A program made the position numbers and the translations under genes. The notes beneath the pieces are model-generated. The model worked only from the letters and a program-made list of their open reading frames with translations, did no database searches and had not been told where the DNA came from. 64,000 bases of DNA from Escherichia coli (GTDB lineage Bacteria > Pseudomonadota > Gammaproteobacteria > Enterobacterales > Enterobacteriaceae), in the NCBI RefSeq assembly GCF_003790525.1, contig NZ_CP033635.1; one strand, written 5' to 3'. This document shows positions 5,339-48,614 of the stretch, one piece after another; the first letter of the stretch is position 1; each line of letters starts with the position of its first letter.

Positions 5339-5372
5339 TGCCGGATACAGCGCAAACGCCTTATCCGGCCAT
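5339..5372. repeat. REP-like palindromic unit (CCGGATA...GCCTTATCCGGCC)
   Basis: Imperfect palindrome of the enterobacterial REP type located 10 bp after the gdhA stop. Confidence 0.6.
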
Positions 5373-12939: not shown

Positions 12940-12970
12940 GGCCTACAATTCTGTACTGGCATTGTAGGCC
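12940..12970. terminator. bidirectional hairpin between convergent pncA and ydjE
   Basis: Perfect 10-bp arms GGCCTACAAT / ATTGTAGGCC separated by 11 nt. Confidence 0.6.
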
Positions 12971-13022
12971 AGATAAAACACGTCAGTGGTACATCTGGCA
13001 ATTGATGCCATCAACGAAAGAT

Positions 13023-25136: not shown

Positions 25137-25186
25137 TTTGCGTTAATGTTGTGTGCCGGGTGCGATGCATCCGGCACGTATCAACA

Positions 25187-27312: not shown

Positions 27313-29247
27313 ATGAATATATTCGATCACTATCGCCAGCGATATGAAGCTGCCAAGGACGAAGAGTTCACACTGCAGGAGTTTCTTACCACTTGTCGGC
27401 AAGATCGCAGTGCTTATGCCAACGCGGCTGAGCGGCTATTGATGGCTATTGGTGAGCCTGTCATGGTCGATACAGCCCAGGAACCCAGACTTTCTCGACT
27501 CTTTTCTAACCGGGTCATTGCACGTTATCCGGCGTTTGAAGAGTTTTACGGCATGGAAGACGCGATTGAACAGATTGTCTCTTATCTGAAACACGCGGCT
27601 CAGGGGCTGGAAGAGAAGAAACAAATCCTGTATCTGCTGGGGCCTGTGGGTGGGGGTAAATCATCGCTTGCTGAGCGACTGAAATCATTAATGCAGCTCG
27701 TGCCGATCTATGTATTAAGCGCTAACGGTGAGCGGAGCCCGGTCAACGATCATCCGTTCTGTCTTTTCAATCCGCAGGAAGATGCGCAGATTCTGGAAAA
27801 AGAGTATGGCATTCCTCGCCGTTATCTCGGCACCATCATGTCGCCGTGGGCGGCAAAACGCCTGCATGAATTTGGTGGCGATATCACTAAGTTCCGGGTA
27901 GTGAAGGTCTGGCCGTCAATTCTGCAACAAATTGCTATCGCCAAAACGGAACCCGGTGATGAGAACAACCAGGACATCTCCGCCCTGGTAGGGAAAGTCG
28001 ATATTCGTAAACTCGAACACTACGCGCAGAATGACCCGGACGCCTACGGCTATTCCGGTGCGCTGTGCCGCGCCAATCAGGGGATCATGGAATTTGTCGA
28101 GATGTTTAAAGCACCGATAAAAGTGCTGCATCCCTTGTTAACCGCCACCCAGGAAGGTAACTACAACGGGACGGAAGGTATCTCCGCCCTGCCGTTCAAC
28201 GGGATTATTCTCGCGCACTCGAACGAATCCGAATGGGTCACTTTCCGTAATAACAAAAACAACGAAGCCTTCCTCGACCGTGTTTACATCGTGAAGGTGC
28301 CGTATTGCTTGCGCATTTCCGAAGAGATCAAAATCTACGAGAAATTGCTTAATCACAGTGAATTGACTCACGCCCCCTGCGCCCCTGGCACGCTGGAAAC
28401 GCTGTCACGTTTTTCTATTCTTTCGCGTCTGAAAGAGCCAGAAAACTCCAGCATTTATTCAAAGATGCGGGTTTATGATGGTGAAAGTTTGAAAGACACT
28501 GATCCCAAAGCCAAGTCGTATCAGGAATATCGTGACTACGCCGGTGTCGATGAAGGGATGAACGGTCTGTCGACGCGTTTTGCGTTTAAGATCCTCTCCC
28601 GCGTGTTCAACTTCGATCATGTAGAAGTGGCGGCAAACCCGGTCCATCTGTTCTACGTCCTGGAACAGCAGATCGAGCGCGAGCAGTTCCCACAAGAGCA
28701 GGCAGAACGCTATCTGGAGTTCCTGAAAGGTTATCTGATCCCGAAATATGCCGAGTTTATCGGCAAAGAGATCCAGACGGCCTACCTTGAATCCTATTCC
28801 GAATATGGGCAAAACATTTTCGACCGTTATGTTACCTACGCGGATTTCTGGATTCAGGATCAGGAGTATCGCGATCCGGATACCGGGCAGTTGTTTGACC
28901 GCGAGTCTCTTAACGCCGAGCTGGAGAAAATCGAGAAACCGGCGGGGATCAGTAATCCAAAAGATTTCCGCAACGAGATTGTTAACTTCGTACTGCGCGC
29001 CAGAGCGAATAACAGCGGACGCAATCCGAACTGGACCAGCTATGAAAAACTGCGCACGGTTATTGAGAAGAAAATGTTCTCCAATACCGAGGAGCTGTTG
29101 CCGGTTATTTCGTTTAACGCCAAAACGTCAACCGACGAGCAGAAGAAACATGACGACTTTGTCGACCGTATGATGGAAAAAGGCTACACCCGTAAACAGG
29201 TGCGTTTACTGTGCGAATGGTATTTGCGCGTACGTAAATCGTCTTAA
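27313..29247 (+). CDS. yeaG: PrkA-family serine protein kinase
   Basis: 644 aa; Walker A GPVGGGKSS; PrkA-like domain organisation. Confidence 0.92.
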   Translation: MNIFDHYRQRYEAAKDEEFTLQEFLTTCRQDRSAYANAAERLLMAIGEPVMVDTAQEPRLSRLFSNRVIARYPAFEEFYGMEDAIEQIVSYLKHAAQGLEEKKQILYLLGPVGGGKSSLAERLKSLMQLVPIYVLSANGERSPVNDHPFCLFNPQEDAQILEKEYGIPRRYLGTIMSPWAAKRLHEFGGDITKFRVVKVWPSILQQIAIAKTEPGDENNQDISALVGKVDIRKLEHYAQNDPDAYGYSGALCRANQGIMEFVEMFKAPIKVLHPLLTATQEGNYNGTEGISALPFNGIILAHSNESEWVTFRNNKNNEAFLDRVYIVKVPYCLRISEEIKIYEKLLNHSELTHAPCAPGTLETLSRFSILSRLKEPENSSIYSKMRVYDGESLKDTDPKAKSYQEYRDYAGVDEGMNGLSTRFAFKILSRVFNFDHVEVAANPVHLFYVLEQQIEREQFPQEQAERYLEFLKGYLIPKYAEFIGKEIQTAYLESYSEYGQNIFDRYVTYADFWIQDQEYRDPDTGQLFDRESLNAELEKIEKPAGISNPKDFRNEIVNFVLRARANNSGRNPNWTSYEKLRTVIEKKMFSNTEELLPVISFNAKTSTDEQKKHDDFVDRMMEKGYTRKQVRLLCEWYLRVRKSS

Positions 29248-29254
29248 CAACCCT

Positions 29255-29279
29255 GGCCCGGTACACATGCTACCGGGCC
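29255..29279 (+). other. stable hairpin in the yeaG-yeaH spacer
   Basis: 9-bp stem GGCCCGGTA / TACCGGGCC with 7-nt loop, no trailing U run. Confidence 0.5.
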
Positions 29280-29347
29280 TACAACGACAGCGAACCGTGG
29301 GCCAGAGAAGCGGCAACACAGGCGTAGCATACCGTTGGCAAATGTAG

Positions 29348-30643
<1,296 letters not shown>

Positions 30644-30789
30644 AACTGTCAGCCGGGTCATTATCGCCTGGCTGATTTTTAGCTCACTGTAAATTATCTC
30701 ATTTATTACATACATTAGCTTACAATCGCTTTAAATATGACAGCATAACCTTTACACAATTTAGTTCCAGAAAACAATCATTCGGAAAA

Positions 30790-46474: not shown

Positions 46475-47440
46475 ATGTCAGACTATCAAATGTTTGAAGT
46501 ACAGGTGAACCAAATTGAACCGCTTACCGAACAGGTGAAACGCTTCACGCTGGTGGCAACCGATGGCAAACCATTACCTGCGTTTACCGGAGGAAGTCAC
46601 GTCATTGTGCAGATGAGCGATGGTGATAACGAGTACAGCAATGCGTATTCACTACTGAGTTCGCCGCATGACACCTCTTGTTATCAGATTGCCGTTCGGC
46701 TGGAGGAAAACTCGCGCGGCGGTTCCCGCTTTTTGCATCAGCAGGTAAAAGTGGGCGATCGGTTAACGATTTCAACGCCTAATAACCTGTTTGCGCTAAT
46801 TCCCTCGGCCAGAAAGCATCTGTTTATCGCGGGAGGCATTGGTATCACCCCTTTCCTGTCGCACCTGGCAGAGATGCAATACAGCGACGTCGACTGGCAG
46901 TTACATTACTGCTCACGAAATCCAGAAAGTTGCGCATTTCGTGATGAGCTAGTCCAGCATCCGCAGGCTGAGAAAGTTCATTTTCATCACTCATCAACCG
47001 GAACACGACTGGAATTAGCGCGATTATTGACGGATATCGAACCTGGCACACATGTTTATACCTGTGGCCCCGAGGCGCTAAATGAGGCGGTAAGAAGTGA
47101 AGCTGCGCGTCTGGACATCGCCGTCGATACGATGCACTTTGAACAATTTGCGATTGAAGACAAAACCGGCGATGCATTTACCCTGGTGCTTGCCCGTTCC
47201 GGTAAAGAGTTTGTGGTGCCGGAAGAGATGACTATTTTGCAGGTTATTGAAAATAATAAAGCAGCGAAAGTGGAATGTTTATGTCGTGAAGGGGTATGCG
47301 GAACCTGCGAAACGGCAATACTGGAAGGTGAAGCTGACCATCGGGATCAGTATTTTAGCGATGAAGAGCGTGCCAGCCAGCAAAGTATGTTGATCTGTTG
47401 TTCGCGCGCGAAGGGTAAACGCCTGGTGTTGGATTTGTAG
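46475..47440 (+). CDS. yeaX: oxygenase reductase subunit (flavin/NAD-binding domain plus plant-type 2Fe-2S ferredoxin)
   Basis: 321 aa; C-terminal CREGVCGTCE ferredoxin motif. Confidence 0.9.
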   Translation: MSDYQMFEVQVNQIEPLTEQVKRFTLVATDGKPLPAFTGGSHVIVQMSDGDNEYSNAYSLLSSPHDTSCYQIAVRLEENSRGGSRFLHQQVKVGDRLTISTPNNLFALIPSARKHLFIAGGIGITPFLSHLAEMQYSDVDWQLHYCSRNPESCAFRDELVQHPQAEKVHFHHSSTGTRLELARLLTDIEPGTHVYTCGPEALNEAVRSEAARLDIAVDTMHFEQFAIEDKTGDAFTLVLARSGKEFVVPEEMTILQVIENNKAAKVECLCREGVCGTCETAILEGEADHRDQYFSDEERASQQSMLICCSRAKGKRLVLDL

Positions 47441-47444
47441 TTTG

Positions 47445-47480
47445 CCGAAGCCGGACTGAGCGCGCTCAGTCCGGCTTCGG
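47445..47480. terminator. perfect 16-bp-stem hairpin between convergent yeaX and rnd
   Basis: CCGAAGCCGGACTGAG-CGCG-CTCAGTCCGGCTTCGG, perfectly complementary arms. Confidence 0.65.
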
Positions 47481-47486
47481 AAGATT

Positions 47487-48614
47487 TTACTGCGGATATT
47501 CCTGCAATAAATTGTGTAATGCTTCCGCCATCAGCTCACCACGCCAGCCGGAAATCAGCTCCGGCAAATTGTTCTGCGGTTTCAGTTTCCAGTGCCAGTT
47601 CAGCAGTTGGTTGATTTGCCGACGCGATGCCAGCAATTCGGCGCTGATCTTGTGCGTTTCGCTCACGTCAGTAATCAGCGACTTAATCGCTTTAAACGCT
47701 TTACGATAACCCGGCATGTCCATCAGGTTAAGCATCGGCTGCGGTAAGGCCTCTTCCGGCAATGTCTGCGCTTTTTCCACCAGCGCCAGCAGCGTTTTAC
47801 CGTGAAAGCGGATTTCGCTACCGGATAAACCCAGGCTGTCCAGTTCGCCTAAACTTCCCGGCATATAACGCGCTACAGACCACAAATGCTCTTCACGCAC
47901 GACAAAGTTCACTGCCAGATCGCGCTCCCGCGCCTTGCGCAGTCGCCAATCGGCTAACAGTTGCAGACAGGCCAGTTGGCGTGTGCGTAACTGCCAGGCA
48001 TTGGTGATATCACGCCAGGCATCTTCCGGCGCAACGACTTCCTGACGACGCATTTGCATCAGGCGGCATTCATCCAGCGCCGCAGGTAGCCAGCCGGAGG
48101 CCTCCGTTTCTACCATAAGCTTGGCGGTGATCGGTAACAAATACCAGACATCCGCCGCTGCGTATTCACACTGACGTTCGGTCAGCGGTCTGGCCAGCCA
48201 GTCGGTGCGCGATTCACTCTTGTCCAGCGTAACGCCGGAATACTCTTCCACCATGGAAGCAAAACCCCATGACATCGGGCGTCCGCAGAAGGCAGCAAGG
48301 ATTTGCGTGTCAATCAGGGGTTGTGGTAATTCGCCAAAGACATTGAGGAACACTTCCAGATCTTCACTGCCCGCATGGAGAAATTTTGTGATGGACGGAT
48401 CGCGCAGGATCGCTTTCAGTGGTGACCAGTCGGAGATCCCGAGAGGATCAATTAGCGCCAGATGCTCACCATCAAAAAGTTGAATTAGACCTAGCTGCGG
48501 GTAATAGGTGCGCGTACGAACAAATTCAGTATCCAGGGCTATCGCCGGAAAGGCACGGACGGCTTCACACAAAGAAGCCAGCGCATCGTCCGTGGTAATC
48601 ATTTGGTAATTCAA
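47487..48614 (-). CDS. rnd: ribonuclease D
   Basis: 375 aa; DEDD exonuclease motif ALDTEF; initiates at UUG (CAA on plus strand at 48612-48614). Confidence 0.9.
   Translation of the reverse strand: MNYQMITTDDALASLCEAVRAFPAIALDTEFVRTRTYYPQLGLIQLFDGEHLALIDPLGISDWSPLKAILRDPSITKFLHAGSEDLEVFLNVFGELPQPLIDTQILAAFCGRPMSWGFASMVEEYSGVTLDKSESRTDWLARPLTERQCEYAAADVWYLLPITAKLMVETEASGWLPAALDECRLMQMRRQEVVAPEDAWRDITNAWQLRTRQLACLQLLADWRLRKARERDLAVNFVVREEHLWSVARYMPGSLGELDSLGLSGSEIRFHGKTLLALVEKAQTLPEEALPQPMLNLMDMPGYRKAFKAIKSLITDVSETHKISAELLASRRQINQLLNWHWKLKPQNNLPELISGWRGELMAEALHNLLQEYPQ

Follow-up and report, generated by a model that had tools for sequence, protein, structure and literature searches.

The window analysed here is a stretch of 64,000 nucleotides of Escherichia coli DNA in which the gene yeaG (644 amino acids, positions 27313-29247, plus strand, stop codon TAA at 29245-29247) is followed on the same strand by yeaH (427 amino acids, 29360-30643). 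Both coding sequences appear in the list of open reading frames and in the RefSeq annotation, which names the product of the first, at an identical locus, 'protein kinase YeaG'. The assignment to E. coli is based on a 401-nt query around the hairpin described below, which matches 5424 of the 5426 complete E. coli genomes with at least 95% identity; the genes under the match are annotated as yeaG and yeaH. The end of the yeaG stop codon (29247) and the start of yeaH (29360) enclose a spacer of 112 nt, the length given in the initial annotation. No promoter-like site was found in this spacer by the promoter and terminator scan. At its yeaH end lie a Shine-Dalgarno-like GGGGGG (29351-29356) and the ATG (29360-29362), identified from the sequence and the list of open reading frames and conserved in alignments A2 and A4. 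The approximately 27 nt preceding the ATG, GTTGGCAAATG[C/T]AGTACGGGGGGCAT, are nearly invariant across the Enterobacteriaceae, and the rest of the spacer, upstream, is variable. A terminator-like hairpin 3' of yeaH (30648-30676, plus strand), with six T in the first 8 nt of its tail, was called by the terminator scan; it is also among the most stable folds of the window and likely represents the end of the yeaGH operon.

The yeaG end of the spacer is occupied by a hairpin (29255-29279) whose arms, GGCCCGGTA (29255-29263) and TACCGGGCC (29271-29279), form a perfect 9-bp stem around the 7-nt loop CACATGC (29264-29270). Seven of the nine pairs of this 25-nt palindrome are G-C. The stem had been placed 8 nt past the yeaG stop; 7 nt (CAACCCT, 29248-29254) intervene, and the eighth is the first paired base. 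Folded as a 36-nt segment the hairpin reaches -18.0 kcal/mol (z = -4.3), and none of 200 dinucleotide shuffles was equally stable, so that the stable GC-rich 9-bp hairpin reported in the initial annotation is real. The 112-nt spacer taken as a whole shows no unusual structure (z = -0.75). When all 31-nt windows on both strands of the 64-kb window were ranked, the hairpin was the seventh most stable locus, and its pattern occurs once in the window with up to 3 mismatches allowed, with an expectation of 0. The hairpin is more than a product of chance.

The hairpin is present in 5424 of the 5426 complete E. coli genomes, as a single copy per genome. Loop base 29270 is C in 2140 genomes (the allele of the window) and T in 2676 (the MG1655 variant); about 608 genomes carry other alleles. 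The 10 nt 3' of the stem (TACAACGACA) contain one T, and the terminator scan that detects 30648-30676 calls no terminator at the hairpin; the initial annotation had likewise noted that a trailing U run is missing. A search of positions 28900-29700 against Rfam 15 returned sub-threshold chance matches only (RydC, 19.7 versus 48 bits; CRISPR-DR9, 14.6 versus 45 bits). The MG1655 record (NC_000913.3, 1866000-1871500) contains coding sequences only, with no repeat or REP feature annotated in the spacer.

A REP origin of the hairpin was suspected because the reverse complement of its tail, ending in CCGGGCCTAC, starts with GTAG (minus strand, 29279-29282, CTAC on the plus strand). A GTAG head, in general form GT(A/G)G, is the defining tag of the REP superfamily (PMC2817692, PMC3733652). 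The hairpin together with this head, hereafter REP1, matches, outside its interior, the published Citrobacter/Klebsiella REP consensus GTAGGCCCGGTAAGCG..GCGCCACCGGGC. Table 1 of PMC2817692 lists two dimorphic REPs for C. koseri and K. pneumoniae, GTAGGCCcGgTAAGCGaaGCGCCaCCgGGC and GTAGGCCggatAAgGCG..CGCCatccGGC. Compared with the C. koseri REP GTAGGCCcGgTAAGCGaaGCGCCaCCgGGC, the minus strand of the hairpin, GTAGGCCCGGTAGCATGTGTACCGGGCC, is identical over the first 12 nt (GTAGGCCCGGTA) and agrees at 7 of the last 8 nt; in the interior, 10-11 nt of the consensus are replaced in the E. coli hairpin and shortened to a loop.

For comparison, 80 yeaG-yeaH loci were gathered across the Gammaproteobacteria and the spacer of each was extracted. 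An intact head-to-head pair of REPs occupies the same spacer position in five relatives (alignment A2), namely the 'E. coli' strain SCPM-O-B-8794, Pseudescherichia vulneris, Enterobacteriaceae RIT691, Leclercia and Pluralibacter gergoviae. The sequence CCGGGCCTAC is found in MG1655, which is identical to the window here, and at the loci of five relatives. The composite in the relatives consists of REP1, GCCCGG[C/T]GGCGC..GCTT[G/A]CCGGGCCTAC, a linker of 8-14 nt and the inverted REP2, GTAGGCCGGATAAGCG..GCGCATCCGGC; these orthologous REPs are the two dimorphic REPs of Table 1 in PMC2817692 and match the family consensus fully. In the window the two REP heads are separated by the 14-nt linker AACGACAGCGAACC (29283-29296, located from alignment A2), which is also found in E. 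albertii and, as a 13-nt version, in SCPM-O-B-8794. Beyond the linker lies a relic of REP2, GTGGGCCAGAGAAGCGGC (29297-29314), recognised by alignment with the intact REP2 copies of relatives and of the E. coli hpaF-hpaH spacer (alignments A2 and A3). Its head has changed from GTAG to GTGG and 13 nt of its interior are deleted; no palindrome is left and the relic does not fold. It is common to E. coli and E. albertii. Strain SCPM-O-B-8794 is an Escherichia genome that carries the label E. coli; its YeaH has diverged as far as the E. albertii protein.

The GCCCGG core of the REP1 hairpin begins 7-12 nt past the yeaG stop in 15 Enterobacteriaceae orthologues, which fits a single old insertion. 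In E. coli the consensus REP occupies a median of 3 places per genome, and REPs of the same class number tens of copies in C. koseri and K. pneumoniae (PMC2817692). One intact E. coli composite was found in the hpaF-hpaH spacer of strain CP53, where TGCCCGGTGGCGCTGCGCTTACCGGGCCTAC and GTAGGCCGGATAAGGCGCAGCCGCATCCGGC are separated by 20 nt.

In common with REPs, the yeaG hairpin has an adjoining GTAG head, is a GC-rich stem-loop palindrome within the usual length of about 20-40 nt and lies outside genes, just past a gene end; the repetition of REPs within a genome is not found for the exact sequence, which occurs once per E. coli genome. It is counted as a REP relic and not as an active family member because of this single copy and of the median of 3 places for the parent consensus. 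Judged by these sequence comparisons, the hairpin is very probably what remains of a head-to-head REP pair, of which one half, degenerate and now single-copy, has survived and the other has decayed. The REP would have entered the spacer as half of such a pair before Escherichia, Citrobacter, Enterobacter, Kluyvera, Leclercia and their relatives split, and the partner REP2 would then have decayed in E. coli and E. albertii.

The opposite end of the spacer carries a predicted pairing site for the small RNA SdsR, GTTGGCAAATGTAG (29334-29347, plus strand), which is supported by pairing energy, by RIL-seq chimeras and by its near-invariance in alignment A2. Nucleotides 18-33 of SdsR (CUGCAUUAAUGCCAAC) pair with this site through 14 bp with a 2-nt bulge at -21.9 kcal/mol, within the top 0.2% of the window. 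The calculation used the MG1655 sdsR sequence and compared the SdsR 5' region with short target windows; whole-molecule RNAduplex runs of SdsR against the spacer gave long duplexes that were no better than shuffles. Published RIL-seq data contain sdsR:::yeaG.yeaH.IGT chimeras in N- and N-24 samples (36-149 fragments per replicate, MG1655 1868803-1868944; supplements of PMC10954441). The hairpin itself was considered as an SdsR target and rejected, its pairing being poor (-14.3 kcal/mol). Since the hairpin is a poor target and the SdsR site maps to 29334-29347, the spacer has two separate modules: on the yeaG side the REP hairpin, and at the ribosome-binding region of yeaH the SdsR pairing site. 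Neither the SdsR site nor the REP ancestry had been recognised in the initial annotation.

Published Term-seq data (Adams et al., PMC7815308, supplementary files 1 and 3) contain two curated 'primary' 3' ends for yeaG, at MG1655 1868879(+) in LB at OD 2.0 (1211 reads) and at 1868880(+) in M63 (762 reads). A yeaG 3' end is missing from the LB OD 0.4 sheet, and the yeaG read counts are low in comparison with strong terminators in the same table (PMC7815308). Converted through locus L001, the two ends correspond to window positions 29284 and 29285, 5-6 nt beyond the last paired base of the hairpin. RNA-seq of nitrogen-starved cells (PMC10954441) gave apparent mean normalised counts of 5327.6 for yeaG and 1791.6 for yeaH, equivalent to 2.75 per nt (1935 nt) and 1.40 per nt (1284 nt), a ratio of approximately 2:1 in this one condition. 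The coverage and 3'-end comparison that had been proposed as a check thus places the ends behind the stem and gives a ratio that is the opposite of uniform read-through.

Stable stem-loops lacking a U tract set steady-state 3' ends in E. coli through trimming by PNPase and RNase II, and 24% of them are REPs (Dar and Sorek, PMC6061677). A role of REPs as mRNA stabilisers is long established according to the work cited in PMC12306157 and PMC6061677 (Newbury 1987 and others). By the proposed mechanism, the hairpin would fold in the yeaGH mRNA to a stem-loop of about -18 kcal/mol, 7 nt past the yeaG stop, which, like other intercistronic REPs, would halt 3'-to-5' exonucleases (PNPase, RNase II) entering from downstream cleavage or termination. 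An RNA species covering yeaG only, with a discrete end 5-6 nt behind the stem, would build up, and the yeaG message would outlast or outnumber the yeaH message. Lying within 15 nt of the stop codon, the stem may in addition get in the way of terminating ribosomes and so reduce YeaG synthesis a little. This reading as a whole, a decayed REP acting as a 3'-exonuclease barrier that yields a stable yeaG-only RNA and perhaps slightly damps YeaG, is considered reasonably probable. The 3' end and the 2:1 ratio are tied to the hairpin by correlation, and the ratio, taken from one condition, might have its origin in other decay patterns. A role of the stem in producing the 3' end by exonuclease blocking, the nucleases named, the way in which their entry site arises and any change of the protein ratio are inferred. 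The initial annotation had favoured an RNA-stabilising or processing element over a terminator. Canonical terminator features are lacking, and the functional guess, which is partly supported, agrees with the published 3'-end and RNA-seq data; the identity of the element as a REP had been missed.

The position of the hairpin was compared in 81 gammaproteobacterial yeaG-yeaH junctions, of which 57 have spacers of at least 40 nt and 24 have spacers of 13-39 nt. Of the 57 longer spacers, 43 have a hairpin of at most -12 kcal/mol that starts within 20 nt of the stop; two of these 43 have a T-rich tail. The 43 hairpins fall into 23 sequence clusters, and about 20 unrelated hairpins share this position. 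Control windows from the same loci replaced per-spacer shuffle tests, which are weak because GC-rich shuffles fold too. Stable hairpins were present in 88% of these spacers, compared with 12% of 70-nt windows lying 5' of yeaG and 28% of windows within the gene. None of the 24 junctions with short spacers has a strong hairpin (the spacer of Pectobacterium, for example, is 36 nt long), and many taxa are without one, which indicates that the operon works in its absence.

Within Escherichia, the REP1 stem is kept, either perfect or wobble-paired, in E. coli, E. albertii and the SCPM-O-B-8794 lineage, and the upper stem and loop differ in each of the three (TA/TA, GG/CT and TGGC/GCTG). The E. albertii fold contains four G-U pairs and is more stable on the transcribed strand (-15.8 kcal/mol) than on the opposite one (-5.7 kcal/mol). 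Six E. coli alleles have approximately 10 polymorphic sites, none of them in the lower 8 bp and one changing the top pair; about 2 changes were expected in those 8 bp, and this small sample gives no significant signal of selection. Covariation among the orthologues gives a weak signal, as the 6-bp core is invariant. For this analysis the arms were re-extracted in register and the interior was replaced by AAAA, since in the MAFFT alignment A2 the 5' arm is displaced by one column.

Three other explanations place the effect of the hairpin in transcription, in translation or at the DNA level. The 3' end would be a true termination product if the hairpin, alone or with Rho, stopped part of the RNA polymerases. 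An end 5-6 nt past a GC-rich stem and the approximately 2-fold fewer yeaH reads per nt fit such an attenuator, and REP/BIME-associated attenuation is documented, as far as the citations of Espeli et al. 2001 in PMC6061677 and PMC12306157 show. It is nevertheless quite unlikely here, since there is no U tract, the rut-like bias of C over G is lacking (C:G is 16:16 in 29280-29333 and below 1 nearer yeaH) and the untranslated RNA ahead of yeaH is only about 80 nt long. A published bicyclomycin read-through table does not list the site, but says little on this point because it covers exponential LB cells, where no yeaG 3' end is called. By analogy with REPs at 15 nt or less from a stop codon, reported by Liang, Rudd and Deutscher 2015 (after PMC12306157) to reduce translation of the gene before them, ribosomes finishing yeaG may stall at the stem, and mRNA cleavage and tmRNA would then lower the output, an effect that may coexist with stabilisation. 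The distances agree with this rule, 7 nt in the window and 7-12 nt to the GCCCGG core in the 15 orthologues, but the stem is shorter than a full REP and, judged from standard ribosome footprints, a ribosome with the stop codon in its A site would reach only the lowest 0-3 bp; translational damping of this kind is unlikely. A role at the DNA level or in binding, whether as a site for gyrase, IHF or the REP-associated transposase (RAYT) or, in the control of yeaH, as an operator or sRNA site, is very improbable. Proteins are known to bind REPs and BIMEs (PMC2817692, PMC12306157), the GTAG head has survived and the minus-strand hairpin is just as stable, yet the BIME composite is broken by the decay of REP2, the SdsR site lies elsewhere (29334-29347) and the spacer has no promoter-like site. 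The E. albertii fold relies on G-U pairs that form on the transcribed strand only, which favours a role at the RNA level.

Even with the hairpin as an exonuclease barrier, it may have been retained without selection. A decaying REP insertion with no selected role would stall exonucleases incidentally, with negligible effect on YeaG and YeaH. This accords with the decay of its partner, with the single copy and its departure from the consensus interior, with the many short-spacer taxa that have no strong hairpin, and with the non-significant stem conservation among E. coli strains and the weak covariation; long spacers may also merely be those that received palindromic insertions. A neutral relic is considered rather unlikely in view of the retention of the REP1 stem in three Escherichia lineages, where the upper stem and loop were rewritten three ways and REP2 was lost, of the approximately 20 unrelated hairpins found elsewhere at the same position, far above control regions, and of the defined yeaG 3' end detected in vivo. 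The converse proposal, which is advanced tentatively and with some doubt, is that selection has favoured in yeaGH a U-less stem-loop lying no more than about 20 nt from the yeaG stop, acquired by convergence and co-opted to uncouple the dosage of yeaG and yeaH. Some 20 unrelated palindromes (REPs, small repeats and lineage-specific hairpins) might on this proposal have been recruited in Enterobacterales, Vibrionaceae, Shewanella and Alteromonas, and in Escherichia compensatory and wobble changes might have preserved the REP1 stem during the decay of its partner. If true, a stable yeaG-only message would be provided at one end of the spacer, and at the other yeaH would be under the control of SdsR.

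The PrkA-type kinase YeaG works together with YeaH as a 'metabolic brake' when E. coli starves, and survival and recovery depend in part on the dosage of the two (PMC4664914, PMC10954441). Two post-transcriptional modules in one spacer offer a possible route to unequal and separately adjustable amounts of the two proteins. The locus is also an example of a REP that was overlooked by annotation because it has decayed, yet marks a transcript end.

The intercistronic REP stabilisers of malE-malF and hisJ-hisQ resemble the yeaG hairpin in being U-less stem-loops between genes of an operon, with an upstream RNA ending behind them and, for yeaGH in the one condition covered, more of the upstream message. 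Their effect was reportedly demonstrated by REP deletion, in work said to be that of Newbury et al. in 1987 and Higgins et al. in 1982. They consist of one or more full REPs, whereas the yeaG hairpin is a single short stem. The protective 3' stem-loops of Rho-dependent transcripts described by Dar and Sorek (PMC6061677) are alike in a terminator-like stem energy, the lack of a uridine tract and a 3' end directly downstream; they differ in that they stand at transcript ends and are followed by C-rich, G-poor rut regions, whereas the yeaG hairpin lies inside an operon and shows no such bias. Like an intrinsic terminator it is a GC-rich stem-loop with an RNA 3' end within a few nucleotides behind it, but the U tract is missing. 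The stop-proximal REPs of Liang et al. 2015, as far as they are described in PMC12306157, correspond to it in REP origin and in a position such as the 7 nt from the stop found here; the yeaG stem is shorter and degenerate.

Inverted REPs joined by a short linker, the arrangement of a BIME, are present in the relatives and in the hpaF-hpaH spacer, while the second REP of the window is a non-palindromic relic. The closest comparison is with the Citrobacter-Klebsiella REP class (GTAGGCCCGG[T/C]AAGCG..GCGCC[A/G]CCGGGC; 'GTAG-3' family), with which the hairpin has in common the outer stem GCCCGG/CCGGGC, the GTAG head, the GC-rich palindrome and the extragenic position after a stop codon. In place of the interior AAGCG..GCGCC of that class it has a short loop, and it is single-copy, has a decayed partner and is unannotated in MG1655. 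The hairpin is neither a locus-specific device nor an element of a new type; it is probably a common protective stem-loop of the REP type, a kind that is well known, which annotation has missed at this site.

The yeaG-yeaH spacer is best conserved at its yeaH-proximal end, where the alignment of spacers shows about 27 nt directly 5' of the yeaH ATG to be nearly invariant across the Enterobacteriaceae (GTTGGCAAATGTAGTACGGGGGGCAT, window 29334-29356). The sRNA SdsR is predicted by computed pairing to form a 14-bp duplex with a 2-nt bulge between its nt 18-33 and window 29334-29347, which matches published RIL-seq chimeras joining SdsR to the spacer between the two genes (PMC10954441). In Brenneria, Pectobacterium and Rahnella (fetched loci L023, L025, L028 and L031) the spacer is only 34-36 nt long and consists essentially of a TTGGCA/TGGCAA..GTT..GGGGG block with little else. 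Because these spacers are essentially that block alone, they suggest that it represents the ancestral yeaG-yeaH spacer, into which palindromes were inserted later. A sequence search of 5,426 complete E. coli genomes found no match to the junction in two; in two other genomes the locus lies on a plasmid-typed record.

Downstream of the REP1 hairpin, the window carries a relic of an inverted partner, REP2 (GTGGGCCAGAGAAGCGGC, 29297-29314), with an internal deletion of 13 nt. In the spacer alignment this relic is common to the E. coli of the window and E. albertii, and REP2 is undamaged in SCPM-O-B-8794, an Escherichia genome labelled E. coli; this distribution implies a complication here, either in the phylogeny or through gene conversion. 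The 202-nt spacers of two Citrobacter loci (L005, L007) contain a REP1-type hairpin and a second palindromic insert, GTGAATCCCAGGAGCGTACATAAGTACGTGACTGGGGTGAGCGA, about 90-140 nt after the stop, which we take to resemble an ERIC/IRU repeat. Three Yersinia spacers (L027, L032, L033) carry near-perfect palindromes of 43-45 nt, e.g. TCGCGTTGTGGCTGTGTTGGCAGCCAGCACAGCTACAGCGTGA, 37-44 nt after the yeaG stop; these fold at -28 to -34 kcal/mol, have no relation to REP1 and probably constitute a repeat family specific to Yersinia.

Elsewhere in the window, a second decayed head-to-head REP arrangement lies at 12940-13000 (GGCCTAC, 17 nt, GTAGGCCAGATAAAACACGTCAGTGGTACATCTGGC), with only the GGCCTAC end of the left REP remaining. 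A canonical-looking Y-type REP on the minus strand (GGCCGGATAAGGCGTTTGCGCTGTATCCGGC, 5340-5370) ranks among the most stable folds of the window in the local fold scan. The joint most stable, at -24.1 kcal/mol, is a perfect 36-nt palindrome (CCGAAGCCGGACTGAGCGCGCTCAGTCCGGCTTCGG, 47445-47480); the two ORFs on either side of it, 46475-47440 on the plus strand and 47487-48614 on the minus strand, converge and are 46 nt apart. A GC-rich hairpin without a U tract (GTGCCGGGTGCGATGCATCCGGCAC, 25153-25183) is, besides the yeaG hairpin, a further hairpin-defined 3' end within the window; its MG1655 counterpart adjoins strong minus-strand Term-seq 3' ends at 1864735 and 1864740, which are classed as primary ends of yeaE and as antisense with respect to yeaD (PMC7815308).

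An intact copy of the REP1-linker-REP2 composite was found in E. coli CP53 (L083, 350-435). It sits inside the hpa operon, in the hpaF-hpaH spacer, and begins about 12 nt 3' of the stop of the upstream gene. It would provide a natural comparator, the intact element versus the decayed one of yeaG-yeaH.
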